From contig JAISYM010000085.1 in NCBI GenBank assembly GCA_031269875.1, positions 1,963 to 65,962 of the forward strand: a DNA stretch of 64,000 nt. Direction: 5' to 3'. Made by a program: the position numbers and the translations under genes. Positions 18,153 to 41,096 of the stretch are shown one piece after another. The stretch comes from Synergistaceae bacterium. GTDB taxonomy: Bacteria > Synergistota > Synergistia > Synergistales > Synergistaceae. Every line of letters begins with the position of its first letter. The first letter of the stretch is position 1. Under the pieces are notes generated by a model. That model did not search any database. It saw only the letters and a list, made by a program, of their open reading frames with translations, and was not told the DNA's origin.

Positions 18153-18158
18153 GCCGCA

Positions 18159-21400: not shown

Positions 21401-21436
21401 AAATAAATCGGCCAGGGAACCGCGAGTCCCCTGGCC
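21401..21436 (-). terminator. Intrinsic terminator after the rhodanese gene
   Basis: On the minus strand: 8-bp GC-rich stem ggccaggg/ccctggcc with an 11-nt loop, followed by gatttattt. Confidence 0.5.
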
Positions 21437-21455
21437 GGTATAAGTATGTTTCCCT

Positions 21456-22412: not shown

Positions 22413-22551
22413 CAAGCTCCTCTTTAGTGATTTGCGTTTCCCTAAATCGGTATTATACCATCCCAAAATTCAAACGCGAGACACGCGTAAAATAAAAAAA
22501 TCGGCCCGGCAATGTATAGTGGTCGGAGGAGAGACCGTGTTCAGGCGCGGT

Positions 22552-23955: not shown

Positions 23956-23979
23956 TCCTTAAAAAACAAACTCACAATT

Positions 23980-24066
23980 ATGCAACTTGTAAGTTGCATT
24001 TTTATATTGTCAAATATATTTTGCCTTTGTCAAGTATATTTTGCCTTCGTCAATTTTATATTTACA
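23980..24066. promoter_or_regulatory. Palindromic operator-like site plus 20-bp tandem repeats upstream of the DUF234-type ATPase gene
   Basis: atgcaactt-gt-aagttgcat at 23980..23999 has 9-bp arms. Units ttgtcaaatatattttgcct (24007..24026) and ttgtcaagtatattttgcct (24027..24046) share 19/20 identity; a degenerate third unit is at 24047..24066. Each unit reads TTGACA on the gene strand. Confidence 0.55.
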
Positions 24067-24218
24067 AACTGCTTCCGTGATGTCAAGCCTCCATATTTTC
24101 AAAAGCACTCCGTTGTGTTAGTCTTGGCTCGGGTGATATGGCTCAAAAAGGATGATGCGCGTATGGACCAAAGTTCCGAAAAACCGGCGGCCGTTTTGGG
24201 ATATGGAGCCGCGAAACC

Positions 24219-24551
24219 ATGACGGCTCGATACGCAAAAGGAATATCGCTGATGCTGATCTGCTCGGTGTGTCTGTGCGCCGGGCAACTGATATGGAAGG
24301 TCATGCCGGGGATGAATATAATTTACCTCGGGAGCGGGTTTGCCGTATTCGCGCTCGGCGCGGCCGCGATGGTGCTGGCGTACCGTTACGGGGAGCTGTC
24401 GGTGTTGCAGCCGTTGAACAGTCTCACATACGTTTTTTCGCTGTTGATAGGCGTGTTCGTCTTTTCAGAGCCGGTTTCGGCCGCGAAACTGCTGGGGGTC
24501 GCGGCGGTTGTCGCGGGCGTCGCGTTGATAGGAAGCTGCGGGAACCGGTGA
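24219..24551 (+). CDS. Half-size EamA/SMR-like membrane protein (ArnE-like flippase subunit)
   Basis: 110 aa with four hydrophobic helices. The C-terminal LLGVAAVVAGVALIG is typical of the EamA/SMR fold. It is paired with a second half-size gene. Confidence 0.65.
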   Translation: MTARYAKGISLMLICSVCLCAGQLIWKVMPGMNIIYLGSGFAVFALGAAAMVLAYRYGELSVLQPLNSLTYVFSLLIGVFVFSEPVSAAKLLGVAAVVAGVALIGSCGNR

Positions 24552-24871
24552 ACTACGCGCTGGTGCTGATCTCTTCGCTTGTGGCGGCGTTCGCCAGTTA
24601 CTTTCTGAAAATAGCGTCGGGGAGCGGCAAAATATCGGGCATCCTGAGAAGCAGGCATCTTTACTTCGGCGGCGCGCTTTATGTGGCGAGCGCGTTTATC
24701 TCGATAGCGCTGCTGAAGAGGATGCCGTTTTCCGTCCTGCTGCCGCTGGGCGGGCTGTGCTACGTGTGGACCATACTCATCTCGCGGAAATTCCTCGGCG
24801 AAAAGATCGGCGCGCGCAAAATCGCCGGCGTTGCCTTGATCATAGCTGGCATCGCCCTCGTGGCGCGGTGA
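24548..24871 (+). CDS. Half-size EamA/SMR-like membrane protein (ArnF-like flippase subunit)
   Basis: The GTG at 24548 overlaps the upstream stop (GTGA). 107 aa, VNYALVLISSLVAAF...IAGVALIIAGIALVAR. The longer track ORF 24152..24871 has an Arg-rich out-of-frame N-terminus and is rejected. Confidence 0.6.
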   Translation: MNYALVLISSLVAAFASYFLKIASGSGKISGILRSRHLYFGGALYVASAFISIALLKRMPFSVLLPLGGLCYVWTILISRKFLGEKIGARKIAGVALIIAGIALVAR

Positions 24872-24926
24872 ATATAGAATGATATAATGACGGCGCGGGC
24901 AAGAAGCCAGTCGCGGGGGATAAGAG

Positions 24927-25853
24927 ATGAACGTACTGATAGCGGGCGGGGCGGGTTTTATTGGATGTCACCTGACGGACGCGCTTATAGACGCCGGGTG
25001 CAAGGTGGTCTGCGCGGATATTCTGCGCTTTGGCGGCAGGGAGAAGCTGGAGAAATATCTCGGGAGCGCGGATTTTTCATTTTACGAGACGGACATCTGC
25101 GACGAGCGCCGGCTCGACGAGATTTTCGCGGCCCATTCGTTCGACAGAGTGTATCATCTGGCGGCCAATTCGGATATCCAGAAAGGCGGCGGGGATCCCT
25201 CGATAGATTTTCACGACACCTTTCTGACGACGGTCAGCCTGTTGAACGCGATGAGGCGTCACGGCGCGCGGGAGATGCTTTTCGCGTCCACCTCGGCCGT
25301 GTACGGCGACAAAAGAGAATTGCTCAAAGAGGACACGGGCGACTTGCGGCCGATATCCTATTACGGCGCCGCCAAACTGGCCTCGGAGTCGTTTATTTCC
25401 GCGTACTCCGCCATGAACGGCCTCCGCGCCTGCGTCACGAGGTTTCCCAACGTTGTCGGCCCAGGGCTGACGCATGGGGCGGTCTATGATTTCATCGCGA
25501 AACTGAGAAAAGACCCCGCGAAACTCGAAATTCTGGGCGACGGAAAACAGGAAAAGCCATACATATACGTTTCGGATCTGGTGGACGCCATGCTGTCGAT
25601 GAATTATCCCGAGGGCGTGACCGTCTGCAACGCGGGGGTCGAGACCGCCACCACCGTGCGGCGCATAGCCGACATAGTGTGCGAGGAAATGGGCCTCGAC
25701 AACGTGGAATACCGTTTCACCGGCGGCGCTGCCGGCTGGCCGGGCGATGTCCCGAAATTTCAGTACGACCTGTCCAAAATACACGCCCTGGGCTGGCGCG
25801 CGAAACACACCTCCGACGAGGCGGTGCGGCTTGCCGCGAGGCTGTCCCTGTGA
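24927..25853 (+). CDS. NAD-dependent epimerase/dehydratase (extended SDR)
   Basis: Rossmann motif GGAGFIGCHL and catalytic YxxxK (YYGAAK). 308 aa. Confidence 0.9.
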   Translation: MNVLIAGGAGFIGCHLTDALIDAGCKVVCADILRFGGREKLEKYLGSADFSFYETDICDERRLDEIFAAHSFDRVYHLAANSDIQKGGGDPSIDFHDTFLTTVSLLNAMRRHGAREMLFASTSAVYGDKRELLKEDTGDLRPISYYGAAKLASESFISAYSAMNGLRACVTRFPNVVGPGLTHGAVYDFIAKLRKDPAKLEILGDGKQEKPYIYVSDLVDAMLSMNYPEGVTVCNAGVETATTVRRIADIVCEEMGLDNVEYRFTGGAAGWPGDVPKFQYDLSKIHALGWRAKHTSDEAVRLAARLSL

Positions 25854-25964
25854 AAGCTGGAGGCGGGGAAATTTTTACGGACTGAAGTTTAACATAATAT
25901 CAAAATCTTGTAAAGAATATGGAACAGGCATTAGAGAGGTGAAAATATTCTCATAATTAATTTC

Positions 25965-26012
25965 CGCCCGCCGGGGGCGCTGTGTTCGTTTGCGCTCGCG
26001 GCGGGCGTTTTT
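25965..26012 (+). terminator. Intrinsic terminator after the epimerase gene
   Basis: Stem cgcccgccg (25965..25973) pairs with cggcgggcg (25999..26007), followed by TTTTT. Confidence 0.6.
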
Positions 26013-26092
26013 CGCGGTATAGATACTTAGCGAAAATTTGAAGGCTGCTTTTCCAGCTTATCTGGGATAGGTTTTTGCCCGCTTCTTGGGCT

Positions 26093-26629
26093 TCAATCTA
26101 CGGACATGGTGTTTTTCAGCCTTTCCCTCAGTTTGCTCACCCTTTGCGACACGGCCTGACGCGAGATGCCGAACATGCGGGCGATTTCGGCGTGGGTGTT
26201 GTTCTCTGCCAGCAGTTCCGCCAAGCGGCGATTTTCTCCGTCGAGCGGGCGTTCTACGGCGTCGGCCAGTTCCAGGCGCTCGAAATCCTCCTCGACTCCG
26301 ATGTCGGCTATATCCTCGGCTCTCAGCAAAGCCTCGCCGTCCTCGTCATCGGGATCGCACTGCGACAACTGAACCGTGCCCTCGGGGTGGTAGAGCTTGA
26401 ACGCCGCGTCGCGGACCATTCCGCGGAGCGAGTTGGATATCGTGCGGTTCAAGTTCTGCCGGGAGGCTTTTTTGACCAGTTTCAGCAGGGCAAGGTAACC
26501 TTCCTGCCGCAGGTCCGCTTCCTCCGCTCCCGCGCGCCGCGAATATTTCCAGGCGTAATAGCCGATCTTTCCGGCGTTCTCATCAATGATGCGCTCCACT
26601 CTCTTCTTGGTGATCCTCATAATTTCCAC
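26093..26629 (-). CDS. Small sigma-70-family RNA polymerase sigma factor
   Basis: Region 2-like DLRQEGYLALLKLVKK and region 4 HTH NTHAEIARMFGISRQAVSQRVSKLRERL. 178 aa. Confidence 0.75.
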   Translation of the reverse strand: MEIMRITKKRVERIIDENAGKIGYYAWKYSRRAGAEEADLRQEGYLALLKLVKKASRQNLNRTISNSLRGMVRDAAFKLYHPEGTVQLSQCDPDDEDGEALLRAEDIADIGVEEDFERLELADAVERPLDGENRRLAELLAENNTHAEIARMFGISRQAVSQRVSKLRERLKNTMSVD

Positions 26630-26649
26630 TTCCTTTCAGTTTGTATTAT

Positions 26650-26991
26650 TCAGTTTTTATATCCTAAATGTAAGTATTTCTTAAAGCCTCCGCAAATTAC
26701 CTGAGAAAAACCTACGCTTTTTGCCATTGCGAAAAGGCGCTTTTGCGCTTCGGGAGCCGCCAGTATATCGGCGGCGCATCCCTCGACGTGCAGGCTGCGC
26801 GGCGCTCCGCCCACTCGCCTGTTATGGGCGGGACAGCGATAACCGCTCGTCACTACCAGCGGGATTTCCGCCTCTTCCCGCAGTTCCTCCAGCATTTGCA
26901 GCAGCCGTGGCGACAATTTCACAAGACCGCAGCAGCGGCACTGGAACTCCCTCAGTTTGAAGTGCGGTGAAATTCTGATGTCGTTTATCAT
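26650..26991 (-). CDS. Peptidase M15A-type (YcbK/DUF882-like) zinc D-Ala-D-Ala carboxypeptidase-family hydrolase
   Basis: Motifs SPHFKLREFQC, SGYRCPAHNRRVGG and SLHVEGCAADI, in 113 aa. Confidence 0.8.
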   Translation of the reverse strand: MINDIRISPHFKLREFQCRCCGLVKLSPRLLQMLEELREEAEIPLVVTSGYRCPAHNRRVGGAPRSLHVEGCAADILAAPEAQKRLFAMAKSVGFSQVICGGFKKYLHLGYKN

Positions 26992-27161
26992 CGGGCGCCC
27001 TCCCCGCTAGAGCGCGCCATCCCCAATATGGCGCTCTCGAGACGCGCTATAGCGCTCGTCAGTTCGTCGAGCCTGCGCTCCATCCTGATCAAAAGAAAGC
27101 CCGCCACCGCGATAGAAAAAGCGCCTTCAGCGAAATTTATCAGCGTCTCGTCCATTTTCAT
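26988..27161 (-). CDS. YvrJ-like small membrane protein (57 aa, below the track cutoff)
   Basis: My translation of the mirror copy 35336..35509 is MKMDETLINFAEGAFSIAVAGFLLIRMERRLDELTSAIARLESAILGMARSSGEGAR. AAAGGAAG lies 4 nt upstream. Its stop overlaps the M15 start (ATGA). One TM helix followed by an amphipathic helix, as in the YvrJ family. Confidence 0.5.
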   Translation of the reverse strand: MKMDETLINFAEGAFSIAVAGFLLIRMERRLDELTSAIARLESAILGMARSSGEGAR

Positions 27162-27185
27162 CGACTTCCTTTCATGAACCGCCGC

Positions 27186-27211
27186 AAAAAAGGCGGGCTG
27201 TCACGCCCGCC
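27186..27211 (-). terminator. Internal intrinsic terminator between the DUF2922-like and YvrJ-like genes
   Basis: On the minus strand: ggcgggc-gtgaca-gcccgcc followed by TTTTTT. Confidence 0.6.
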
Positions 27212-27229
27212 CCATGCCGATTTTCCTGC

Positions 27230-27442
27230 CTAGAACAGCGTTTTCACGCTGCGGCTCGTTATCGCGGCCCCGAGTTTTTCGTTGGGTTCGTAGTTGAAAG
27301 CGTCGCTCGCGATGATGACGTCCATGGCATCTTTCGCCTCCGTCGCCGTGATATCGTCCCTCACGCTCTGGAGTGATACGGTCTTTTTCTTGTCGTCAGC
27401 CGCGCCAAATTTCATCGCCAGTGTCAGAGTTTCAGTCGCCAT
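27230..27442 (-). CDS. DUF2922-like small protein
   Basis: 70 aa, MATETLTLAMKFG...KKTVSLQSVRDDITATEAKDAMDVIIASDAF. The layout matches the DUF2922 proteins I recall from Firmicutes. A GGAGG sits upstream. Confidence 0.55.
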   Translation of the reverse strand: MATETLTLAMKFGAADDKKKTVSLQSVRDDITATEAKDAMDVIIASDAFNYEPNEKLGAAITSRSVKTLF

Positions 27443-27461
27443 TTCGTCGCGCCTCCTTGGG

Positions 27462-27680
27462 TTAAATGACCAGCAGCTCGCTGCGCTGCAGGGATACCTT
27501 CTCCACGTCCATGGAGAACAAGCCGTCCATAGCCGCCGCTACGGCCGCCAGACTGTCCGCGTCGGCCTCGCCCTTGATGCCGCTCATAGACACATTTTTG
27601 TAAATGGTCTTTTCACCCTCCGTCTCGCCGGTGTTCAGTTTGAACGTCATCCTTCCCGGCTGCACCAATATCGTCGCCAT
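27462..27680 (-). CDS. DUF1659-like small protein
   Basis: 72 aa, ...RMTFKLNTGETEGEKTIYKNVSMSGIKGEADADSLAAVAAAMDGL. The layout matches DUF1659. An AAGGAGG sits upstream. Confidence 0.55.
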   Translation of the reverse strand: MATILVQPGRMTFKLNTGETEGEKTIYKNVSMSGIKGEADADSLAAVAAAMDGLFSMDVEKVSLQRSELLVI

Positions 27681-28003
27681 TTCACATTCCTCCTTCAGAG
27701 TCTTCGGGCGGCGGGCCCTTTCCGCCCTATATAGGATAGATTGGGCAGCATCCCCGCAACTGGCTACCGGCCCCGAAAAATCGAAGATTTTTTAAGCGCG
27801 CGGCGCATTGGAAAATTTTGTATCCATCGGGCGGCGGTTTCAAAAAGCGTGTCCCATTGGAATTTTAGGGGTACGCATTGCGTGTCCGTGCGCTCCTTCA
27901 TACCAATATTCATAACTTGCGCCCCGAGTTTTCGATGATATTCTCAAAACACGGTATTTGTGTTTTAATGGTTCCACGAGCGAATAGGATGAGGTGATCT
28001 TGC

Positions 28004-29002
28004 TTGTGTCGACTGGTGAGCGTCGTGGTGCCCGCGTACAATGTTGGCGGCAGAATTGAATATTCGCTTCGTTCGCTGCTTGAACAGGATTACGATCCGA
28101 TCGAGATAATAGTGGTCGACGACGGTTCCTCCGACGGCACGGCCGAAAACGCCGACAGGGTGCTCAGTGCGGGCGGACGCCCGTATAGGATACTGAGAAA
28201 CGCGCAAAACCGCGGCGTCTCCGCGTCGCGAAACGCCGGACTGCGCGACGCGAAGGGTGAGTATGTCCTCTTTATGGACGCCGACGACAAATCGGACGCC
28301 AACTTTATATCCACGCTGCGCCGCATGATCGTTAAAAACGACTCCGACGCCGCGCTCTGCGGTTTCAGGAATTATTTCGAGGATACCGGCCGGGAAGTGC
28401 TCATACCGATAAAGTTGGATCCATCCAGGACTTACGCGGGGGAAGAATTGGCGGCGAGGCGAATCCTGACGCACTTCGGGGCAGTGTGGACCACGCTTTT
28501 CAAGATATCCTTCCTGCGCGAGGCTCGCCTTGAGTTCCCCGAGGAATGTCGGTACGGGGAGGATGTCGAATTTACGGTAAAGGCATTTTCCCGGTGCCGT
28601 CAGGTCGCGGTCTCGCCGGCATGTCCCTATGTTTACGTGCATCACGGCGAAAACGCGTCGGCTTCGCTGCTTTCCTCGCGAGAAAAACGCCTCCGGCGAT
28701 ATTCCGATATCACCGCATCGACGCTCCGAATCGCGAATTACTTCAAAGAACATTCCGCGTCGCCCAAATTGCTGGATATCGCCGACAACTTTCTTGAATC
28801 GCAGTATTTAATGAGAGTTCTGACATTGGCGGCGAAAGAGGGCGACATTGAAAAATTCAACCGCGCGCTCGCCTCTTTGGACGCGCGCCGCCTGCTGGTC
28901 GCCACGGGCAAGTACGCCGCGCGGAAGCCCGAGCTGCTGCTGAAGGCCATGTGCATACTCATTTCTCCCAGGTTGTTCTACAGAGTCAGATCGCGGTCAT
29001 GA
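28004..29002 (+). CDS. Family 2 glycosyltransferase
   Basis: TTG start 7 nt after GAGGTG. Motifs VSVVVPAYN, VVDDGSSDGT and FMDADD (DxD). Confidence 0.88.
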   Translation: MCRLVSVVVPAYNVGGRIEYSLRSLLEQDYDPIEIIVVDDGSSDGTAENADRVLSAGGRPYRILRNAQNRGVSASRNAGLRDAKGEYVLFMDADDKSDANFISTLRRMIVKNDSDAALCGFRNYFEDTGREVLIPIKLDPSRTYAGEELAARRILTHFGAVWTTLFKISFLREARLEFPEECRYGEDVEFTVKAFSRCRQVAVSPACPYVYVHHGENASASLLSSREKRLRRYSDITASTLRIANYFKEHSASPKLLDIADNFLESQYLMRVLTLAAKEGDIEKFNRALASLDARRLLVATGKYAARKPELLLKAMCILISPRLFYRVRSRS

Positions 29003-30051
29003 ATATCATCCATATACTTCCGGAGCTGGAGGATGGCGGTGTGGAGCGCCTTGTGCCGGTGTACGCCAACGAACAGGCTCTTTTGGGGCACAATATCTCC
29101 GTCATCTCGGCCGGGGGCAAATTAGAGTCGCTCTTGTCGCCGGAGGTGCGGCATATCAGGATGCCGGTGCACAGAAAAAACCCGGCGATCGGACTGTTGT
29201 GCGCGTTTCGGCTGGCCCGGATAATCGCGCGCGGCGACGTATCCGTGATCCACGCACATTCCCGGGTTCCGGCGTGGATATGTTGCGTCGCCAAACGCCT
29301 CGCGCCGCGCGTGAAATTCTTCTTCACCGCGCACAGCGACTACGCCAAATACAAACTCGGCATGTGGCCGGTAAAACATGCCGACGGCGTGACCTGCGTC
29401 TCGCAATATGCGCTCAATTCACTTTTAAATTGGCTGCCCGCAAATGTGCCGACAAATGTAATCTACAACCCGGTGATCAAAAAACTCCTGCCCTGGAGGG
29501 GCGGCAGCGGCACGGCAAAACGCCTGCTCTACGCGGGACGCCTGAGCCCAAAAAAATTTCCGCTTGCCGTTCTCGAAGCCCTCGCCCGCCACAGGGAACA
29601 CGCGTGGGTGCTTGATATTTTCGGCGACGGCCCCTTCAGGCAATCCGTAGAGGACAGAGCGCGGGAACTGGGCATCGGTGACAGGGTGATATTGCATGGT
29701 TTCAGTGATAACATACCCGAGATTCTGGCGGATTGCGACCTCCTGCTGCACTCATCCATGGCCGAAGGATTCGGCCTGACGCTGCTGGAGGCACTGTTAT
29801 CGGGAGTTCCCGTTATCGCCTCCGACCTGCCCGCGACGAGGGAACTCACCGGCTCCGACGGAACGGGCCTCCTGCCCCCCGGAGACGCGGAAGCGTGGAG
29901 CGAGGCGTTTGGCGCGTTTTTCGACGGTAAATACGTTCACTCACTGAAACTGGCTGTGAAACTGCCAACACCGGACGAGGCGGCCAAGGCAATGATACGG
30001 TTTTACGGAGAAACCGTCCGGGATGCCGTGCCTCTTGTCAGGACGACATAA
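28999..30051 (+). CDS. GT-B (family 4 / Glycos_transf_1) glycosyltransferase
   Basis: The ATG at 28999 overlaps the GT2 stop (ATGA). E-x7-E motif is EGFGLTLLEALLSGVPVIASD. The track start at 28951 is rejected. Confidence 0.85.
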   Translation: MNIIHILPELEDGGVERLVPVYANEQALLGHNISVISAGGKLESLLSPEVRHIRMPVHRKNPAIGLLCAFRLARIIARGDVSVIHAHSRVPAWICCVAKRLAPRVKFFFTAHSDYAKYKLGMWPVKHADGVTCVSQYALNSLLNWLPANVPTNVIYNPVIKKLLPWRGGSGTAKRLLYAGRLSPKKFPLAVLEALARHREHAWVLDIFGDGPFRQSVEDRARELGIGDRVILHGFSDNIPEILADCDLLLHSSMAEGFGLTLLEALLSGVPVIASDLPATRELTGSDGTGLLPPGDAEAWSEAFGAFFDGKYVHSLKLAVKLPTPDEAAKAMIRFYGETVRDAVPLVRTT

Positions 30052-30151
30052 TTTTGAAAACACGCCCCAACATGAAAATTTTCGGATTGAATGCGATGTG
30101 ATATGAAGAAGTGTCTCTTAACTTTTACTCTCACCGCGGCGGCTTGGCAGT

Positions 30152-30829
30152 TCATACGTATCTTTTCGCGCGCAGTATCAAGCGCGCCAATGGGCGCAAC
30201 AAGAGCTGAAGCCAGCCGGGAGACTTGCCGGCAAAGGCGAAACGCACAGCCGCCCTCTTGATTCCGTAAGTCAAGCAAATACTCATACGATGATGGCCGT
30301 CATTCAGGTTATCCTGGGTTCCCATTTGTCTAAGGAGCATTATTTCCAGGCGATAAACGTCGTTCCAGCCATCCTTCAAGATAGAGGAAGCCAATTTGTC
30401 GTAGCGCTCCAAGCCGCCCTCGCGCGGGTCGTTCCAAACACGCGTAAACGAATACGCCGTTTCGCGTGTGCGCCTGCCGCGCTCAATGCCAAGATCTCGC
30501 AATACGGAGGGGTCTGTGTGATATATTCCGGTGCCGTGCGATACATAATAATTTCGCCAAGCTCTGATGAATAAGGGAAAAGGGTTCCACCACGGAATAC
30601 GTGGAACAAAAGCTACTCTGACTGGAATAAATTCGTCTCCGTTCTCGATCGCCCGCAGTATCCTGAGCCGGCCGGAAAGGAGAGAATCGGGAACGCCGCG
30701 CGATTCGTCGCCGCAAAGAAGCGTAACGTAATCTTCTTTTTCATCTTCATCCGCGGACGAACCTCCAGGCAGGTTTATCAAATCGTTAGGGTCAATAGGA
30801 TATACCTCCGATGACATTCCGATACGCAT
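30152..30829 (-). CDS. Hypothetical protein with C-terminal ParB/Srx-like (DGHHR) motif
   Basis: 225 aa. LNDGHHRMSICLTYGIKRAAV resembles the ParB N-terminal nuclease-like domain core. No clear RBS, so the start is uncertain. Confidence 0.5.
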   Translation of the reverse strand: MRIGMSSEVYPIDPNDLINLPGGSSADEDEKEDYVTLLCGDESRGVPDSLLSGRLRILRAIENGDEFIPVRVAFVPRIPWWNPFPLFIRAWRNYYVSHGTGIYHTDPSVLRDLGIERGRRTRETAYSFTRVWNDPREGGLERYDKLASSILKDGWNDVYRLEIMLLRQMGTQDNLNDGHHRMSICLTYGIKRAAVRFAFAGKSPGWLQLLLRPLARLILRAKRYV

Positions 30830-30971
30830 TGAAATTACGATTCCACGATCATATACATAAAAAATGTCCCGCCACTCCGGAAAGGTTTCCCGGCGCCATT
30901 TGCGTCTCTATTACGTTTGTATCTCGATTGCGTTTTCATCGGATATAACAAGCCCACCCCATGTATGAAAA

Positions 30972-31248
30972 TTTGTAACTATTCAGTCGTGTATTCCTGC
31001 CATAAAATTGTCCCAACACCTGTTATATAAGCAGGTGTTTAGGAAGTAGATGTTAAGTGGCATGATAGCTTGAGGTGTATGGATGAAGAAATTTGACTGT
31101 TGTAAAAACGTACAATGAATTTTTATTACAAGTGTGGACAGTTAGTGGAAAGTAAGATGTATTAGCAAGACACCTGCTTATATAACAGGTGTTCTGGGCA
31201 ATCTTGGGTTAAATCCTTATACCTTTACTAAGACTGAATAGTTACAAA
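30972..31248. mobile_element. AT-rich ~277-bp non-coding element with 17-bp perfect TIRs and subterminal hairpins (MITE-like)
   Basis: TIRs are tttgtaactattcagtc (30972..30988) and gactgaatagttacaaa (31232..31248). The 23-nt hairpin motif acacctg-N9-caggtgt occurs at 31016..31038 and, inverted, at 31170..31192. No ORF of 60 aa or more lies inside. Confidence 0.6.
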
Positions 31249-31525
31249 TTTGTAACTATTCAGTCTTAGTAAAGGTATAAGGATTTAACCCAAGATTGCC
31301 CAGAACACCTGTTATATAAGCAGGTGTCTTGCTAATACATCTTACTTTCCACTAACTGTCCACACTTGTAATAAAAATTCATTGTACGTTTTTACAACAG
31401 TCAAATTTCTTCATCCATACACCTCAAGCTATCATGCCACTTAACATCTACTTCCTAAACACCTGCTTATATAACAGGTGTTGGGACAATTTTATGGCAG
31501 GAATACACGACTGAATAGTTACAAA
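31249..31525. mobile_element. Mirror copy of the TIR element, abutting the first copy tip to tip at the axis
   Basis: Exact reverse complement of 30972..31248. Hairpin motifs are at 31305..31327 and 31459..31481. Confidence 0.6.
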
Positions 31526-31667
31526 TTTTCATACATGGGGTGGGCTTGTTATATCCGATGAAAACGCAATCGAGATACAAACGTAATAGAGACGCAAATG
31601 GCGCCGGGAAACCTTTCCGGAGTGGCGGGACATTTTTTATGTATATGATCGTGGAATCGTAATTTCA

Positions 31668-32345
31668 ATGCGTATCGGAATGTCATCGGAGGTATATCCT
31701 ATTGACCCTAACGATTTGATAAACCTGCCTGGAGGTTCGTCCGCGGATGAAGATGAAAAAGAAGATTACGTTACGCTTCTTTGCGGCGACGAATCGCGCG
31801 GCGTTCCCGATTCTCTCCTTTCCGGCCGGCTCAGGATACTGCGGGCGATCGAGAACGGAGACGAATTTATTCCAGTCAGAGTAGCTTTTGTTCCACGTAT
31901 TCCGTGGTGGAACCCTTTTCCCTTATTCATCAGAGCTTGGCGAAATTATTATGTATCGCACGGCACCGGAATATATCACACAGACCCCTCCGTATTGCGA
32001 GATCTTGGCATTGAGCGCGGCAGGCGCACACGCGAAACGGCGTATTCGTTTACGCGTGTTTGGAACGACCCGCGCGAGGGCGGCTTGGAGCGCTACGACA
32101 AATTGGCTTCCTCTATCTTGAAGGATGGCTGGAACGACGTTTATCGCCTGGAAATAATGCTCCTTAGACAAATGGGAACCCAGGATAACCTGAATGACGG
32201 CCATCATCGTATGAGTATTTGCTTGACTTACGGAATCAAGAGGGCGGCTGTGCGTTTCGCCTTTGCCGGCAAGTCTCCCGGCTGGCTTCAGCTCTTGTTG
32301 CGCCCATTGGCGCGCTTGATACTGCGCGCGAAAAGATACGTATGA
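31668..32345 (+). CDS. Hypothetical protein with ParB/Srx-like (DGHHR) motif (mirror copy)
   Basis: Mirror of 30152..30829, with an identical 225-aa translation in the track. Confidence 0.5.
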   Translation: MRIGMSSEVYPIDPNDLINLPGGSSADEDEKEDYVTLLCGDESRGVPDSLLSGRLRILRAIENGDEFIPVRVAFVPRIPWWNPFPLFIRAWRNYYVSHGTGIYHTDPSVLRDLGIERGRRTRETAYSFTRVWNDPREGGLERYDKLASSILKDGWNDVYRLEIMLLRQMGTQDNLNDGHHRMSICLTYGIKRAAVRFAFAGKSPGWLQLLLRPLARLILRAKRYV

Positions 32346-32445
32346 ACTGCCAAGCCGCCGCGGTGAGAGTAAAAGTTAAGAGACACTTCTTCATATCACA
32401 TCGCATTCAATCCGAAAATTTTCATGTTGGGGCGTGTTTTCAAAA

Positions 32446-33498
32446 TTATGTCGTCCTGACAAGAGGCACGGCATCCCGGACGGTTTCTCCGTAAAACCGT
32501 ATCATTGCCTTGGCCGCCTCGTCCGGTGTTGGCAGTTTCACAGCCAGTTTCAGTGAGTGAACGTATTTACCGTCGAAAAACGCGCCAAACGCCTCGCTCC
32601 ACGCTTCCGCGTCTCCGGGGGGCAGGAGGCCCGTTCCGTCGGAGCCGGTGAGTTCCCTCGTCGCGGGCAGGTCGGAGGCGATAACGGGAACTCCCGATAA
32701 CAGTGCCTCCAGCAGCGTCAGGCCGAATCCTTCGGCCATGGATGAGTGCAGCAGGAGGTCGCAATCCGCCAGAATCTCGGGTATGTTATCACTGAAACCA
32801 TGCAATATCACCCTGTCACCGATGCCCAGTTCCCGCGCTCTGTCCTCTACGGATTGCCTGAAGGGGCCGTCGCCGAAAATATCAAGCACCCACGCGTGTT
32901 CCCTGTGGCGGGCGAGGGCTTCGAGAACGGCAAGCGGAAATTTTTTTGGGCTCAGGCGTCCCGCGTAGAGCAGGCGTTTTGCCGTGCCGCTGCCGCCCCT
33001 CCAGGGCAGGAGTTTTTTGATCACCGGGTTGTAGATTACATTTGTCGGCACATTTGCGGGCAGCCAATTTAAAAGTGAATTGAGCGCATATTGCGAGACG
33101 CAGGTCACGCCGTCGGCATGTTTTACCGGCCACATGCCGAGTTTGTATTTGGCGTAGTCGCTGTGCGCGGTGAAGAAGAATTTCACGCGCGGCGCGAGGC
33201 GTTTGGCGACGCAACATATCCACGCCGGAACCCGGGAATGTGCGTGGATCACGGATACGTCGCCGCGCGCGATTATCCGGGCCAGCCGAAACGCGCACAA
33301 CAGTCCGATCGCCGGGTTTTTTCTGTGCACCGGCATCCTGATATGCCGCACCTCCGGCGACAAGAGCGACTCTAATTTGCCCCCGGCCGAGATGACGGAG
33401 ATATTGTGCCCCAAAAGAGCCTGTTCGTTGGCGTACACCGGCACAAGGCGCTCCACACCGCCATCCTCCAGCTCCGGAAGTATATGGATGATATTCAT
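32446..33498 (-). CDS. GT-B (family 4) glycosyltransferase (mirror copy)
   Basis: Mirror of 28999..30051, with an identical translation. Confidence 0.85.
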   Translation of the reverse strand: MNIIHILPELEDGGVERLVPVYANEQALLGHNISVISAGGKLESLLSPEVRHIRMPVHRKNPAIGLLCAFRLARIIARGDVSVIHAHSRVPAWICCVAKRLAPRVKFFFTAHSDYAKYKLGMWPVKHADGVTCVSQYALNSLLNWLPANVPTNVIYNPVIKKLLPWRGGSGTAKRLLYAGRLSPKKFPLAVLEALARHREHAWVLDIFGDGPFRQSVEDRARELGIGDRVILHGFSDNIPEILADCDLLLHSSMAEGFGLTLLEALLSGVPVIASDLPATRELTGSDGTGLLPPGDAEAWSEAFGAFFDGKYVHSLKLAVKLPTPDEAAKAMIRFYGETVRDAVPLVRTT

Positions 33499-34493
33499 GA
33501 CCGCGATCTGACTCTGTAGAACAACCTGGGAGAAATGAGTATGCACATGGCCTTCAGCAGCAGCTCGGGCTTCCGCGCGGCGTACTTGCCCGTGGCGACC
33601 AGCAGGCGGCGCGCGTCCAAAGAGGCGAGCGCGCGGTTGAATTTTTCAATGTCGCCCTCTTTCGCCGCCAATGTCAGAACTCTCATTAAATACTGCGATT
33701 CAAGAAAGTTGTCGGCGATATCCAGCAATTTGGGCGACGCGGAATGTTCTTTGAAGTAATTCGCGATTCGGAGCGTCGATGCGGTGATATCGGAATATCG
33801 CCGGAGGCGTTTTTCTCGCGAGGAAAGCAGCGAAGCCGACGCGTTTTCGCCGTGATGCACGTAAACATAGGGACATGCCGGCGAGACCGCGACCTGACGG
33901 CACCGGGAAAATGCCTTTACCGTAAATTCGACATCCTCCCCGTACCGACATTCCTCGGGGAACTCAAGGCGAGCCTCGCGCAGGAAGGATATCTTGAAAA
34001 GCGTGGTCCACACTGCCCCGAAGTGCGTCAGGATTCGCCTCGCCGCCAATTCTTCCCCCGCGTAAGTCCTGGATGGATCCAACTTTATCGGTATGAGCAC
34101 TTCCCGGCCGGTATCCTCGAAATAATTCCTGAAACCGCAGAGCGCGGCGTCGGAGTCGTTTTTAACGATCATGCGGCGCAGCGTGGATATAAAGTTGGCG
34201 TCCGATTTGTCGTCGGCGTCCATAAAGAGGACATACTCACCCTTCGCGTCGCGCAGTCCGGCGTTTCGCGACGCGGAGACGCCGCGGTTTTGCGCGTTTC
34301 TCAGTATCCTATACGGGCGTCCGCCCGCACTGAGCACCCTGTCGGCGTTTTCGGCCGTGCCGTCGGAGGAACCGTCGTCGACCACTATTATCTCGATCGG
34401 ATCGTAATCCTGTTCAAGCAGCGAACGAAGCGAATATTCAATTCTGCCGCCAACATTGTACGCGGGCACCACGACGCTCACCAGTCGACACAA
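33495..34493 (-). CDS. Family 2 glycosyltransferase (mirror copy)
   Basis: Mirror of 28004..29002, with an identical 332-aa translation. Confidence 0.88.
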   Translation of the reverse strand: MCRLVSVVVPAYNVGGRIEYSLRSLLEQDYDPIEIIVVDDGSSDGTAENADRVLSAGGRPYRILRNAQNRGVSASRNAGLRDAKGEYVLFMDADDKSDANFISTLRRMIVKNDSDAALCGFRNYFEDTGREVLIPIKLDPSRTYAGEELAARRILTHFGAVWTTLFKISFLREARLEFPEECRYGEDVEFTVKAFSRCRQVAVSPACPYVYVHHGENASASLLSSREKRLRRYSDITASTLRIANYFKEHSASPKLLDIADNFLESQYLMRVLTLAAKEGDIEKFNRALASLDARRLLVATGKYAARKPELLLKAMCILISPRLFYRVRSRS

Positions 34494-34816
34494 GCAAGAT
34501 CACCTCATCCTATTCGCTCGTGGAACCATTAAAACACAAATACCGTGTTTTGAGAATATCATCGAAAACTCGGGGCGCAAGTTATGAATATTGGTATGAA
34601 GGAGCGCACGGACACGCAATGCGTACCCCTAAAATTCCAATGGGACACGCTTTTTGAAACCGCCGCCCGATGGATACAAAATTTTCCAATGCGCCGCGCG
34701 CTTAAAAAATCTTCGATTTTTCGGGGCCGGTAGCCAGTTGCGGGGATGCTGCCCAATCTATCCTATATAGGGCGGAAAGGGCCCGCCGCCCGAAGACTCT
34801 GAAGGAGGAATGTGAA

Positions 34817-35035
34817 ATGGCGACGATATTGGTGCAGCCGGGAAGGATGACGTTCAAACTGAACACCGGCGAGACGGAGGGTGAAAAGACCATTTACAAA
34901 AATGTGTCTATGAGCGGCATCAAGGGCGAGGCCGACGCGGACAGTCTGGCGGCCGTAGCGGCGGCTATGGACGGCTTGTTCTCCATGGACGTGGAGAAGG
35001 TATCCCTGCAGCGCAGCGAGCTGCTGGTCATTTAA
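34817..35035 (+). CDS. DUF1659-like small protein (mirror copy)
   Basis: Mirror of 27462..27680, with an identical translation. Confidence 0.55.
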   Translation: MATILVQPGRMTFKLNTGETEGEKTIYKNVSMSGIKGEADADSLAAVAAAMDGLFSMDVEKVSLQRSELLVI

Positions 35036-35054
35036 CCCAAGGAGGCGCGACGAA

Positions 35055-35267
35055 ATGGCGACTGAAACTCTGACACTGGCGATGAAATTTGGCGCGGCTG
35101 ACGACAAGAAAAAGACCGTATCACTCCAGAGCGTGAGGGACGATATCACGGCGACGGAGGCGAAAGATGCCATGGACGTCATCATCGCGAGCGACGCTTT
35201 CAACTACGAACCCAACGAAAAACTCGGGGCCGCGATAACGAGCCGCAGCGTGAAAACGCTGTTCTAG
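35055..35267 (+). CDS. DUF2922-like small protein (mirror copy)
   Basis: Mirror of 27230..27442, with an identical translation. Confidence 0.55.
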   Translation: MATETLTLAMKFGAADDKKKTVSLQSVRDDITATEAKDAMDVIIASDAFNYEPNEKLGAAITSRSVKTLF

Positions 35268-35285
35268 GCAGGAAAATCGGCATGG

Positions 35286-35311
35286 GGCGGGCGTGACAGC
35301 CCGCCTTTTTT
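35286..35311 (+). terminator. Internal intrinsic terminator (mirror copy)
   Basis: ggcgggc-gtgaca-gcccgcc followed by TTTTTT. Confidence 0.6.
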
Positions 35312-35335
35312 GCGGCGGTTCATGAAAGGAAGTCG

Positions 35336-35509
35336 ATGAAAATGGACGAGACGCTGATAAATTTCGCTGAAGGCGCTTTTTCTATCGCGGTGGCGGGCTT
35401 TCTTTTGATCAGGATGGAGCGCAGGCTCGACGAACTGACGAGCGCTATAGCGCGTCTCGAGAGCGCCATATTGGGGATGGCGCGCTCTAGCGGGGAGGGC
35501 GCCCGATGA
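35336..35509 (+). CDS. YvrJ-like small membrane protein (mirror copy)
   Basis: Hand-translated 57-aa ORF. Its stop overlaps the M15 peptidase start at 35506. Confidence 0.5.
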   Translation: MKMDETLINFAEGAFSIAVAGFLLIRMERRLDELTSAIARLESAILGMARSSGEGAR

Positions 35510-35847
35510 TAAACGACATCAGAATTTCACCGCACTTCAAACTGAGGGAGTTCCAGTGCCGCTGCTGCGGTCTTGTGAAATTGTCGCCACGGCTGCTGCA
35601 AATGCTGGAGGAACTGCGGGAAGAGGCGGAAATCCCGCTGGTAGTGACGAGCGGTTATCGCTGTCCCGCCCATAACAGGCGAGTGGGCGGAGCGCCGCGC
35701 AGCCTGCACGTCGAGGGATGCGCCGCCGATATACTGGCGGCTCCCGAAGCGCAAAAGCGCCTTTTCGCAATGGCAAAAAGCGTAGGTTTTTCTCAGGTAA
35801 TTTGCGGAGGCTTTAAGAAATACTTACATTTAGGATATAAAAACTGA
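35506..35847 (+). CDS. Peptidase M15A-type hydrolase (mirror copy)
   Basis: Mirror of 26650..26991, with an identical translation. Confidence 0.8.
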   Translation: MINDIRISPHFKLREFQCRCCGLVKLSPRLLQMLEELREEAEIPLVVTSGYRCPAHNRRVGGAPRSLHVEGCAADILAAPEAQKRLFAMAKSVGFSQVICGGFKKYLHLGYKN

Positions 35848-35867
35848 ATAATACAAACTGAAAGGAA

Positions 35868-36404
35868 GTGGAAATTATGAGGATCACCAAGAAGAGAGTG
35901 GAGCGCATCATTGATGAGAACGCCGGAAAGATCGGCTATTACGCCTGGAAATATTCGCGGCGCGCGGGAGCGGAGGAAGCGGACCTGCGGCAGGAAGGTT
36001 ACCTTGCCCTGCTGAAACTGGTCAAAAAAGCCTCCCGGCAGAACTTGAACCGCACGATATCCAACTCGCTCCGCGGAATGGTCCGCGACGCGGCGTTCAA
36101 GCTCTACCACCCCGAGGGCACGGTTCAGTTGTCGCAGTGCGATCCCGATGACGAGGACGGCGAGGCTTTGCTGAGAGCCGAGGATATAGCCGACATCGGA
36201 GTCGAGGAGGATTTCGAGCGCCTGGAACTGGCCGACGCCGTAGAACGCCCGCTCGACGGAGAAAATCGCCGCTTGGCGGAACTGCTGGCAGAGAACAACA
36301 CCCACGCCGAAATCGCCCGCATGTTCGGCATCTCGCGTCAGGCCGTGTCGCAAAGGGTGAGCAAACTGAGGGAAAGGCTGAAAAACACCATGTCCGTAGA
36401 TTGA
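35868..36404 (+). CDS. Small sigma-70-family sigma factor (mirror copy)
   Basis: Mirror of 26093..26629, with an identical translation. Confidence 0.75.
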   Translation: MEIMRITKKRVERIIDENAGKIGYYAWKYSRRAGAEEADLRQEGYLALLKLVKKASRQNLNRTISNSLRGMVRDAAFKLYHPEGTVQLSQCDPDDEDGEALLRAEDIADIGVEEDFERLELADAVERPLDGENRRLAELLAENNTHAEIARMFGISRQAVSQRVSKLRERLKNTMSVD

Positions 36405-36484
36405 AGCCCAAGAAGCGGGCAAAAACCTATCCCAGATAAGCTGGAAAAGCAGCCTTCAAATTTTCGCTAAGTATCTATACCGCG

Positions 36485-36532
36485 AAAAACGCCCGCCGCG
36501 AGCGCAAACGAACACAGCGCCCCCGGCGGGCG
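36485..36532 (-). terminator. Intrinsic terminator after the epimerase gene (mirror copy)
   Basis: Mirror of 25965..26012. Confidence 0.6.
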
Positions 36533-36643
36533 GAAATTAATTATGAGAATATTTTCACCTCTCTAATGCCTGTTCCATATTCTTTACAAGATTTTGATAT
36601 TATGTTAAACTTCAGTCCGTAAAAATTTCCCCGCCTCCAGCTT

Positions 36644-37570
36644 TCACAGGGACAGCCTCGCGGCAAGCCGCACCGCCTCGTCGGAGGTGTGTTTCGCGCG
36701 CCAGCCCAGGGCGTGTATTTTGGACAGGTCGTACTGAAATTTCGGGACATCGCCCGGCCAGCCGGCAGCGCCGCCGGTGAAACGGTATTCCACGTTGTCG
36801 AGGCCCATTTCCTCGCACACTATGTCGGCTATGCGCCGCACGGTGGTGGCGGTCTCGACCCCCGCGTTGCAGACGGTCACGCCCTCGGGATAATTCATCG
36901 ACAGCATGGCGTCCACCAGATCCGAAACGTATATGTATGGCTTTTCCTGTTTTCCGTCGCCCAGAATTTCGAGTTTCGCGGGGTCTTTTCTCAGTTTCGC
37001 GATGAAATCATAGACCGCCCCATGCGTCAGCCCTGGGCCGACAACGTTGGGAAACCTCGTGACGCAGGCGCGGAGGCCGTTCATGGCGGAGTACGCGGAA
37101 ATAAACGACTCCGAGGCCAGTTTGGCGGCGCCGTAATAGGATATCGGCCGCAAGTCGCCCGTGTCCTCTTTGAGCAATTCTCTTTTGTCGCCGTACACGG
37201 CCGAGGTGGACGCGAAAAGCATCTCCCGCGCGCCGTGACGCCTCATCGCGTTCAACAGGCTGACCGTCGTCAGAAAGGTGTCGTGAAAATCTATCGAGGG
37301 ATCCCCGCCGCCTTTCTGGATATCCGAATTGGCCGCCAGATGATACACTCTGTCGAACGAATGGGCCGCGAAAATCTCGTCGAGCCGGCGCTCGTCGCAG
37401 ATGTCCGTCTCGTAAAATGAAAAATCCGCGCTCCCGAGATATTTCTCCAGCTTCTCCCTGCCGCCAAAGCGCAGAATATCCGCGCAGACCACCTTGCACC
37501 CGGCGTCTATAAGCGCGTCCGTCAGGTGACATCCAATAAAACCCGCCCCGCCCGCTATCAGTACGTTCAT
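36644..37570 (-). CDS. NAD-dependent epimerase/dehydratase (mirror copy)
   Basis: Mirror of 24927..25853, with an identical translation. Confidence 0.9.
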   Translation of the reverse strand: MNVLIAGGAGFIGCHLTDALIDAGCKVVCADILRFGGREKLEKYLGSADFSFYETDICDERRLDEIFAAHSFDRVYHLAANSDIQKGGGDPSIDFHDTFLTTVSLLNAMRRHGAREMLFASTSAVYGDKRELLKEDTGDLRPISYYGAAKLASESFISAYSAMNGLRACVTRFPNVVGPGLTHGAVYDFIAKLRKDPAKLEILGDGKQEKPYIYVSDLVDAMLSMNYPEGVTVCNAGVETATTVRRIADIVCEEMGLDNVEYRFTGGAAGWPGDVPKFQYDLSKIHALGWRAKHTSDEAVRLAARLSL

Positions 37571-37625
37571 CTCTTATCCCCCGCGACTGGCTTCTTGCCC
37601 GCGCCGTCATTATATCATTCTATAT

Positions 37626-37949
37626 TCACCGCGCCACGAGGGCGATGCCAGCTATGATCAAGGCAACGCCGGCGATTTTGCGCGCGCCGATCTTTTCGCC
37701 GAGGAATTTCCGCGAGATGAGTATGGTCCACACGTAGCACAGCCCGCCCAGCGGCAGCAGGACGGAAAACGGCATCCTCTTCAGCAGCGCTATCGAGATA
37801 AACGCGCTCGCCACATAAAGCGCGCCGCCGAAGTAAAGATGCCTGCTTCTCAGGATGCCCGATATTTTGCCGCTCCCCGACGCTATTTTCAGAAAGTAAC
37901 TGGCGAACGCCGCCACAAGCGAAGAGATCAGCACCAGCGCGTAGTTCAC
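37626..37949 (-). CDS. ArnF-like half-size EamA/SMR membrane protein (mirror copy)
   Basis: Mirror of 24548..24871. Confidence 0.6.
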   Translation of the reverse strand: MNYALVLISSLVAAFASYFLKIASGSGKISGILRSRHLYFGGALYVASAFISIALLKRMPFSVLLPLGGLCYVWTILISRKFLGEKIGARKIAGVALIIAGIALVAR

Positions 37950-38278
37950 CGGTTCCCGCAGCTTCCTATCAACGCGACGCCCGCGACAACCGCCGCGACC
38001 CCCAGCAGTTTCGCGGCCGAAACCGGCTCTGAAAAGACGAACACGCCTATCAACAGCGAAAAAACGTATGTGAGACTGTTCAACGGCTGCAACACCGACA
38101 GCTCCCCGTAACGGTACGCCAGCACCATCGCGGCCGCGCCGAGCGCGAATACGGCAAACCCGCTCCCGAGGTAAATTATATTCATCCCCGGCATGACCTT
38201 CCATATCAGTTGCCCGGCGCACAGACACACCGAGCAGATCAGCATCAGCGATATTCCTTTTGCGTATCGAGCCGTCAT
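37946..38278 (-). CDS. ArnE-like half-size EamA/SMR membrane protein (mirror copy)
   Basis: Mirror of 24219..24551, with an identical translation. Confidence 0.65.
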   Translation of the reverse strand: MTARYAKGISLMLICSVCLCAGQLIWKVMPGMNIIYLGSGFAVFALGAAAMVLAYRYGELSVLQPLNSLTYVFSLLIGVFVFSEPVSAAKLLGVAAVVAGVALIGSCGNR

Positions 38279-38430
38279 GGTTTCGCGGCTCCATATCCCA
38301 AAACGGCCGCCGGTTTTTCGGAACTTTGGTCCATACGCGCATCATCCTTTTTGAGCCATATCACCCGAGCCAAGACTAACACAACGGAGTGCTTTTGAAA
38401 ATATGGAGGCTTGACATCACGGAAGCAGTT

Positions 38431-38517
38431 TGTAAATATAAAATTGACGAAGGCAAAATATACTTGACAAAGGCAAAATATATTTGACAATATAAAAATG
38501 CAACTTACAAGTTGCAT
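38431..38517. promoter_or_regulatory. Palindrome plus 20-bp tandem repeats upstream of the DUF234-type ATPase (mirror copy)
   Basis: Mirror of 23980..24066. It reads ...cTTGACAaaggcaaaatatatTTGACAatataaaaatgcaacttacaagttgcat on the gene strand. Confidence 0.55.
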
Positions 38518-38541
38518 AATTGTGAGTTTGTTTTTTAAGGA

Positions 38542-39945: not shown

Positions 39946-40084
39946 ACCGCGCCTGAACACGGTCTCTCCTCCGACCACTATACATTGCCGGGCCGATTTT
40001 TTTATTTTACGCGTGTCTCGCGTTTGAATTTTGGGATGGTATAATACCGATTTAGGGAAACGCAAATCACTAAAGAGGAGCTTG

Positions 40085-41041: not shown

Positions 41042-41060
41042 AGGGAAACATACTTATACC

Positions 41061-41096
41061 GGCCAGGGGACTCGCGGTTCCCTGGCCGATTTATTT
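41061..41096 (+). terminator. Intrinsic terminator after the rhodanese gene (mirror copy)
   Basis: Stem ggccaggg (41061..41068) pairs with ccctggcc (41080..41087), followed by gatttattt. Confidence 0.5.

Follow-up and report, generated by a model that had tools for sequence, protein, structure and literature searches.

A probable 62-kb assembly fold-back, seeded by a short palindrome next to a promoter-like cassette, in a termite-gut Synergistaceae contig

Introduction

Contig JAISYM010000085.1 belongs to a metagenome-assembled genome (MAG) of a Synergistaceae bacterium (assembly GCA_031269875.1), and the 64,000-nucleotide stretch of it that is analysed here (positions 1,963 to 65,962 of the forward strand, hereafter the window) raises the question of why it reads, from position 31249 onwards, as the reverse complement of itself, and why this reversal takes place exactly at the tip of a small AT-rich element bounded by inverted repeats. 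Positions 1..31248 and 31249..62496 are exact reverse complements, with 0 mismatches over 31,248 bp and zero spacer, giving a 62,496-bp palindrome whose match is bounded by the window edge alone. This 62-kb mirror is almost certainly an assembler fold-back and not a chromosome structure; on the best reading, its axis of symmetry is an artefact of assembly that grew out of a short palindromic word lying at the border of a genuine, promoter-like cassette. The joint explanation, a fold-back made by the assembler at such a word together with a genuine, mobile-like cassette beside it, is considered likely.

A preliminary description of the locus, made from the sequence, had proposed a ~277-bp element (30972..31248) with terminal inverted repeats (TIRs) and subterminal hairpins, having the architecture of a miniature inverted-repeat transposable element (MITE) or of a recombinase-binding module. 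It did not weigh the assembly of an inverted loop in the de Bruijn graph of short reads, which is the simplest source of a whole-contig palindrome. The distinction matters, as a palindromic contig makes a genome look larger and richer in genes than it is and may be taken for a hairpin telomere or a giant inverted duplication. The module at the axis also reveals a small family of repeat-bounded promoter cassettes that stand before surface-related and other genes in termite-gut Synergistaceae. If these cassettes are mobile or invertible, they would offer a route to rewire or phase-vary expression in an uncultured gut lineage; the family is a modest new observation, and its mechanism is of a known kind.

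A contig that retraces its own reverse complement

The source contig is 66,420 bp long in the MAG record, an even number corresponding to ~2 x 33,210, which fits a contig that is palindromic throughout. The MAG carries the locus-tag prefix LBS45, and its source sample falls under BioProject PRJNA732531. The protein encoded next to the axis has been deposited twice at NCBI, under the consecutive accessions MDR1515501.1 and MDR1515502.1, which means that both mirror copies were deposited; the second copy of its gene lies at window positions 31668-32345, the mirror of 30152-30829. Probably, therefore, ~33 kb of sequence, with all its genes, have been artefactually doubled in the public MAG record.

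The arm itself carries chromosomal genes. Pfam scans of its open reading frames (ORFs) recognised purF, purL and purQ, an AMMECR1/LigB-like/radical-SAM trio, a SNF2 helicase, an alkaline phosphatase, a corrinoid protein, an epimerase, and glycosyltransferases of the GT2 and GT4 types. No transposase, resolvase, recombinase, integrase or phage gene was found with Pfam among the scanned ORFs of the 31-kb arm, nor the transposase partner that the MITE reading had led to expect. The last 2 kb before the axis (29000..31248) gave no megablast match to plasmids, the 277-bp element gave no blastn match to plasmids and phages, and an Rfam scan of 1..32000 returned no known RNA family.

How the fold-back probably arose

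A k-mer with a self-complementary suffix makes an inverted loop in the assembly graph, and SPAdes and MEGAHIT emit the resulting palindromic unitigs whole (PMC9528984); unitigs are also unsafe where coverage is imperfect or gapped (PMC9528984). The MAG batch JAIRJQ-JAITXW, a sister series that includes the contigs of two loci compared below (L010 and L011) and in which contig names follow the k119_ style, was assembled from NovaSeq 2x150 reads with MEGAHIT v1.2.8 at k = 21,31,...,119 (PMC11257099). The palindromic unitigs described as lonely inverted loops by Rahman & Medvedev (Genome Res 2022, PMC9528984) resemble the present contig, which is also a zero-spacer mirror on a self-complementary word; however, that work treats genuine (synthetic) palindromes and small unsafe unitigs, and not a 62-kb fold-back of unique chromosome. 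Apart from it, literature searches brought up no documented MEGAHIT palindromic contigs, the other matches being mentions of CRISPR.

The word that lies across the axis (Table 1) consists of two 14-bp arms around the symmetric 6-bp core AAATTT and, as a DNA hairpin, has a folding free energy of -13.1 kcal/mol. Its left half is one copy of a perfect 17-bp inverted repeat, TTTGTAACTATTCAGTC (30972..30988) and GACTGAATAGTTACAAA (31232..31248), which had been reported in the preliminary description and is exact. The repeat had also been extended to 20 bp with AAA/TTT: AAA does precede the left copy (IR_L), but positions 31249..31251 are already past the axis, as the mirror image of 31246..31248, and the independent evidence for the repeat amounts to 17 bp plus the AAA before IR_L. 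When the 419-bp intergenic region was shuffled 1000 times, no inverted repeat was longer than 12 bp and no end-anchored one longer than 9 bp, compared with the 17 observed. Shuffles of the window give an expectation of 0.06 matches for the 17-mer and 0.00 for the 23-nt hairpin motif discussed in the next section, and the window has 4 of each.

Of the 20 axis-spanning 21-mers and the axis-spanning 22-mers, not one is present in the left arm in either orientation; IR_L covers just 3 nt past the axis. Since there is no axis-spanning 21-mer in the arm, the assembler could not invent the junction at the smallest k of MEGAHIT, and a palindromic word of at least 22 nt centred between 31248 and 31249 must have been present in the reads. 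A junction built by the assembler from the 20-bp repeat alone is ruled out by the same result. A fold-back caused by pairing of, or inversion between, IR_L and its right counterpart (IR_R) is rejected by reasoning, because it would be centred on a non-palindromic 243-bp segment and not on the outer tip.

What such a word requires in order to produce a whole-arm mirror was reproduced in a toy de Bruijn graph, which used the real 2-kb arm, tip clipping and low-depth pruning. No fold-back arose from a plain end, from the 34-bp palindrome with a well-covered flank, or from a well-covered flank to which 10% of fold-back molecules had been added. The whole arm folded back at k = 31 when the 34-bp palindrome was followed by a flank whose coverage stopped 40 nt later, and at every k tested when a DNA end was combined with 10% of fold-back molecules. 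It follows from these outcomes that the contig needs a palindromic word together with a missing continuation, which jointly also sufficed in the toy graph. This rule can be applied in screens: a fold-back calls for a palindromic word longer than k plus a lost continuation. In the toy graph, the two perfectly inverted 24-nt sites already collapse at k = 21, so that the region is a graph tangle from the outset. MEGAHIT itself passes contigs from low k on to higher k, removes tips shorter than 2k and accepts a (k+1)-mer once it has been seen twice.

The proposed mechanism would start from a self-complementary word longer than k that lay across the axis in the reads, with no competing continuation. 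This word would be GACTGAATAGTTAC-AAATTT-GTAACTATTCAGTC, or at least its central 22 nt. Its favoured source would be a site in the leader of the missing downstream gene at which the 17-nt repeat unit directly adjoins an inverted copy of itself. A coverage gap or strain variation would then have removed the true right flank, which would have been clipped as a tip. With no competing continuation left and a palindromic word longer than k, the MEGAHIT contig would have run through the inverted loop and then retraced its own reverse complement. The axis would fall at the tip of the repeat because the repeat unit itself supplies the palindromic word; a genuine short palindrome is favoured as the source because it needs no special chemistry and explains the coincidence of axis and tip. 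The words expected to lead from the axis into the true right flank are GTAACTATTCAGTC and ACAAATTT.

A promoter-like cassette beside the axis

The module at the axis is real, non-coding and bounded by inverted repeats. A recount gives a G+C content of 18/60 at 31081..31140 against 41/60 at 17041..17100, as had been counted before, and the 277-bp element as a whole has 35% GC versus 57% in the arm; its longest ORF has 37 aa, in agreement with the earlier statement that none of 60 aa or more lies inside. The two 23-nt hairpin motifs, 44 and 56 nt from the element tips and in opposite orientation, are exact reverse complements of each other and have the similar flanking bases that had been described. 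Of the four hairpins that had been counted within ~470 bp, these two are real and the other two are their mirror copies (Table 1).

Table 1. Coordinates of the arms, the axis word, the cassette and the neighbouring gene in the window
Feature	Position	Strand	Description
Genuine arm	1..31248	none	Termite-gut Synergistaceae MAG chromosome (Pfam scans)
Mirror arm	31249..62496	none	Exact reverse complement of 1..31248; read as assembler-made, not genomic
Last gene before the axis	30152..30829	-	225-aa orphan protein, in a glycosyltransferase cluster
Native leader of the 225-aa gene	30830..30891	-	Shared with L004 (blastn, 62 nt, 75.8% identity, E = 3.5e-6)
IR_L	30969..30988	+	AAATTTGTAACTATTCAGTC; left copy, 27 nt beyond the distal site, toward the 225-aa gene
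Conserved putative promoter cassette	31005..31199	+	~190 bp; homologous to L010 493-691 and L011 959-1170
Distal 7-N9-7 site	31016..31038	+	ACACCTG-TTATATAAG-CAGGTGT
Spacer	31039..31169	+	131 nt; conserved blocks GAAGAAATTTGACTG and GGACAGTTAG..AAGTAAGAT
Promoter-like motif (predicted)	31135..31163	+	TGGACA-17-TGTATT; ends 6 nt before the proximal site
Proximal 7-N9-7 site	31170..31192	+	ACACCTG-CTTATATAA-CAGGTGT; 23/23 identical as inverted copy of the distal site
IR_R	31232..31248	+	GACTGAATAGTTACAAA; inverted right copy, 39 nt past the proximal site, ends exactly at the axis
Axis word	31232..31265	none	34-bp perfect palindrome GACTGAATAGTTAC-AAATTT-GTAACTATTCAGTC, centred between 31248 and 31249
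Mirror copies in the artefactual arm	31305..31327 and 31459..31481 (two sites), 31509..31528 (IR_L)	none	

The view of the 17/20-bp repeat as the ends of a family of elements finds no support in these comparisons. The search for the 17-mer covered the arm, the related loci and viral contigs: it has no further copy in the 31-kb arm, no copy within 4 mismatches in the related loci compared, and neither it nor its 20-nt form is found in the cassettes of the three other loci described below (L004, L010 and L011). Two matches were obtained in viral contigs, both taken as chance: the first lies in intergenic DNA of unrelated context and the second within what looks like a coding stretch. In the window, non-homologous stretches of 18 nt and 29 nt keep the repeat apart from the conserved cassette. 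As for a target-site duplication, the left flank reads AAA, while the mirror stands in place of the right flank, and AAATTT may be either a palindromic duplication or just the mirror.

The hairpins, which had been regarded as subterminal to the TIR, turn out in the other copies to bound the conserved unit themselves. Judged by sequence comparison, they are the borders of a recurring promoter cassette that is gained and lost, and not appendages of a 17-bp TIR. The MITE reading thus keeps its non-coding, inverted-repeat-bounded core with presence and absence at different loci, but its unit is a cassette bounded by 7-N9-7 sites and not the 277-bp TIR element. The cassette consists of ATTGTCC-N2-3, the distal site, a spacer of 131-146 nt and the proximal site, and its homology ends directly after CAGGTGTT. 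A promoter-like motif lies within the spacer (Table 1). It was not called by a generic promoter scan of the window, and it aligns in position with the sigma70-like motif TTGACG-17-TATTTT that the scan called in L011. The cassette points rightward, at the axis and away from the 225-aa gene.

This orientation bears on what is missing from the assembly. The axis lies 56 nt past the proximal site, where other copies of the cassette have the start of a gene, so that a gene should follow and the true sequence probably continues beyond 31248. The orthologous loci of two relatives (L004 and L005) run on past this point into a divergent gene. By analogy with the other copies of the cassette, the genuine sequence past 31248 should be missing and replaced by the mirror, and a cassette aimed at the axis argues against a natural replicon end. 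The exact 23-nt motif has 0 matches in genome and metagenome contigs, hence no sequence of the same species shows the right flank.

Copies of the cassette at other loci

The search for further hairpin copies, which the preliminary description had suggested, failed for the exact 23-mer and succeeded for related two-site cassettes. A scan of public genomes with the two-site architecture pattern found two further contigs of termite-gut Synergistaceae, L010 (JAITRO010000206.1, which carries LBU13_10180) and L011 (JAISXR010000068.1), and the pattern has 0 matches in viral contigs. With L004, the locus of an 80%-identical orthologue of the 225-aa protein, the family is known from four copies. The window spacer aligns to those of L010 and L011 with local scores of 58 and 51 (z = 16.5 and 16.1), on the plus strand only, scores reached by 0/500 dinucleotide shuffles; the L010 and L011 spacers align to each other in the same orientation with z = 5.8. 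With blastn, the cassette matches over 195 nt at 68-69% identity (E = 1.6e-10), and an nhmmer profile places the unit at 31005..31199 with E = 8.7e-54, the window being among the three sequences that build the model. The L004 cassette has its two sites exactly 131 nt apart but is otherwise weakly similar (nhmmer E = 0.01; global z ~2.9). The spacers measure 131 nt in L004, 134 nt in L010 and 146 nt in L011.

The two sites of each cassette vary together. Compared as inverted copies, their 9-nt centres are identical at 9/9 positions in the window, L010 and L011 and at 7/9 in L004, while between cassettes 2-8/9 positions are identical. Centres that match within a cassette and differ between cassettes indicate that the two sites are kept matched, as would be the case for partner recombination sites or terminal repeats, and the constant 7-nt stems argue for recognition of the sequence and against a merely structural hairpin.

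In all three other loci a gene starts shortly after the proximal site: a secreted 287-aa protein in L010 (ATG 67 nt after the site), a glf-like flavoenzyme in L011 (ATG 52 nt after it) and the 225-aa homologue in L004 (55 nt after it). The genes in L010 and L011 are unrelated, and the loci are not orthologous. The L010 cassette has a cobalamin riboswitch (RF00174) and its terminator on one side and the regulated gene on the other, and comes with a leader and ribosome-binding site of its own. At two orthologous loci, L012 (80%) and L016 (59%), the terminator is separated from the ATG by 52 and 25 nt, respectively, and the cassette is absent (compared regions: L010 154-751, L012 135-499 and L016 about 140-458). 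The insertion in L010 would be expected to uncouple the downstream operon from B12 control. The cassette is also absent from L003 and L005, orthologues of the window gene, though present in L004; the orthologue loci L013-L016 have no cassette and hence no flipped copy.

The cassette most likely works as a movable, MITE-like promoter module, as far as its sequence allows its promoter activity, mobility and enzyme to be predicted. A recombinase or transposase acting in trans would recognise the two 7-N9-7 sites, and an outward promoter just inside the proximal site would drive whichever gene starts 50-70 nt downstream. Promoter-carrying MITEs are found in bacteria, such as the Correia elements of Neisseria. 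The cassette resembles these in being ~200 bp long, non-coding, AT-rich and intergenic, with inverted repeats of ~25 nt and an outward promoter-like motif, in lying just upstream of gene starts, and in being present or absent at orthologous loci. Unlike them, it has terminal repeats that are themselves 7-N9-7 palindromes, shows no target-site duplication or clean empty site, belongs to termite-gut Synergistaceae and has no similarity to annotated plasmid or phage records. By analogy, then, the cassette may belong with promoter-bearing MITEs or with families of invertible promoters.

Some further features of these loci can be mentioned. The operon downstream of the L010 cassette includes an Fe-S protein and HGD-D/BcrAD-type genes, and a TonB-dependent receptor is encoded at the orthologous locus L013. 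At L010 459-488, where the insertion has its left boundary, lies an imperfect 30-bp palindrome centred on AAA/TTT (ATTTTTTATTCTAAA/TTTCTAATTAAAAAT), which matches the axis word of the window at 13/20 positions; it could be a chance product of AT-richness, or an AAATTT-centred site that marks cassette boundaries. L011 has a third, degenerate 7-N9-7 site at 1179-1205 (ACACTATTTATTTGAGTAGGTGT), 16 nt past the proximal site and just before the glf-like start, and the inner flank of its distal site shares the direct repeat TCTTGAAAATT with the outer flank of its proximal site.

Weighing the explanations

Several points weigh against an assembler fold-back at a genuine short palindrome. The genuine palindrome that it calls for at the axis, 22 bp or more in length, is assumed and not observed, and the case for the fold-back comes from the assembled sequence and not from the reads. 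The MAG, with locus tag LBS45, has been assigned to the MEGAHIT batch through the locus-tag and sample series, with no direct record. A genomic 34-bp palindrome folds back in the toy graph at k = 31 only, and its persistence to k = 119 would rely on MEGAHIT carrying over its earlier contigs. The match of IR_L runs on across the axis for 3 further bases (AAA); this is a hint that AAATTT is a natural joint, and it suits a genomic palindrome and a biological junction equally. Regarding the cassette, only four copies were found, its putative promoter is a consensus-like match, and no clean empty site or target-site duplication has been seen at the loci compared.

It could be argued that the junction is a real product of element-end processing at the tip of a 277-bp TIR element, whose reads supplied the word that the assembler then extended to the 62-kb mirror. 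Such products would include hairpin-capped ends, head-to-head or circle-type abutted ends, and sister-chromatid recombination through the AAATTT core. The preliminary description had also named a polymerase strand switch and a Tn5/Tn10-type transposon-end hairpin as possible mechanisms; the latter would call for a DDE transposase with ends matching the TIR and for a hairpin exactly at the element tip, where the axis does lie. The 14-6-14 layout is that of a full recombinase site or of a junction of abutted ends, and IR_L, as a core plus one arm, looks like an att-like hybrid site or a TIR with a palindromic target duplication. The junction word had to be in the reads, the toy graph with a DNA end and fold-back molecules reproduces the contig at every k tested, and the cassette core is polymorphic in its presence. 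Nevertheless, the 17-mer has neither a second copy in the arm or related loci nor, in the two viral matches, a related context, the other cassettes do not have it, and the arm has yielded no transposase or recombinase. Moreover, a minority junction species next to a covered flank gives no fold-back, so that most molecules would have to end at the axis. This explanation is regarded as unlikely. A small probability is likewise given to the combined view that the cassette is an active mobile or invertible promoter module whose enzyme produced the axis word, at the element tip, as a true joint of recombination or of a hairpin; if so, the assembly would have caught by accident an intermediate of transposition or recombination, or DNA with a hairpin-capped end, in an uncultured bacterium.

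A second alternative leaves the fold-back as an artefact and takes the module to be an inverton. A recombinase would invert one of two segments, the 131-nt spacer that the 7-N9-7 sites enclose or the 243 nt enclosed by the 20-bp repeats (30989..31231), and would thereby switch expression back and forth between the side of the 225-aa and glycosyltransferase genes and the missing gene on the right. Invertible promoters include fimS of E. coli and the polysaccharide promoter invertons of Bacteroides fragilis. As in these, a short promoter-like segment lies within identical inverted repeats beside surface-glycan genes and belongs to a family of similar units. Here two nested pairs of perfect inverted repeats surround the motif next to surface-polysaccharide genes, and the L011 cassette precedes a glf-like gene. 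Each site resembles two inverted arms of 7-8 bp around a 9-nt asymmetric spacer, with centres that are the same within and different between cassettes, as crossover regions must be. The cassette also points away from the 225-aa gene in the window and toward its 80% orthologue in L004. However, the window and L004 come from different species, and the orientation in L004 is read from the weak similarity given above; unlike in fimS and the B. fragilis promoters, no locus has been found in both orientations within one species, and the cassettes of L010, L011 and L004 all point at the adjacent gene. Nor was a site-specific recombinase with integrase or resolvase domains found in the scanned ORFs of the arm, and no invertase gene was found nearby. 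Presence and absence at orthologous loci, which is not usual for fixed switches, fits insertion better, and an axis 56 nt outside the sites would go unexplained, since inversion paths in the graph give a non-palindromic centre. An inverton is therefore held to be quite unlikely.

Third, the word may have come from fold-back chimeras that formed during library preparation or sequencing where coverage of the true flank failed, neither a genomic palindrome nor a biological junction being involved. A missing continuation and at least two identical chimeric reads would suffice, the self-complementary AAATTT could prime or ligate head-to-head, and the library kit is not reported. This source appears very unlikely, as the same chimera could recur only from a defined DNA end exactly at 31248, pruning normally removes random chimeras, and the mirror repeats the left flank of IR_L for 3 nt, which a random break would do with a chance of ~1/64 to 1/20.

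Hairpin telomeres are made by telomere resolvases in phage N15 (TelN/telRL), Borrelia (ResT) and Agrobacterium (TelA). A true replicon end of this kind, or a hairpin-capped or palindromic chromosome variant, in which read-through made the mirror, is extremely improbable: although the zero-spacer, dyad-symmetric junction, in which 14-bp arms enclose an AT-rich core of 6 bp, looks like that of a replicated telomere, hairpin read-through gives such a mirror contig, as the toy graph with a DNA end and fold-back molecules does, and IR_L offers an inward copy of the half-site, the arm has housekeeping content with no resolvase found in 31 kb, the orthologous loci of relatives continue into the divergent gene, a native end would leave the cassette promoter firing into nothing, and known Synergistota genomes are circular.

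The neighbouring gene and related palindromes

The 225-aa gene next to the axis is annotated at NCBI as LBS45_07400, a hypothetical protein called with 221 aa from a start at 30817. Its protein has 7 homologues among 5.8 billion proteins and no Pfam domain; the homologues whose source can be identified come from termite-gut data sets, and both in the window and in L003 the gene belongs to a glycosyltransferase cluster.

Matches to the two-site pattern in metagenome contigs L006-L009 were not counted as copies of the cassette, since they represent other hairpin families (tandem arrays and longer palindromes). L006 3421-3588 and L008 4100-4266 contain ACACCTG-N9-CAGGTGT stems in three direct copies with spacings of 98 and 49 nt, and L009 1266-1776 contains five longer palindromes (CCCAACACCTGCCCATTGGGCAGGTGTTTGGG) in both orientations with the same stems. 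ACACCTG-N9-CAGGTGT may be a more widespread palindrome recognised by a protein.

Within the arm, two ATPase genes flank the purine-biosynthesis genes, at 15343-16596 (-) and 22552-23955 (-), of the DUF4143/AAA_14 and ATPase_2/DUF234 types, the second with a weak Mrr_cat-like match as well. Both are of ordinary type, though they could have a role in defence.

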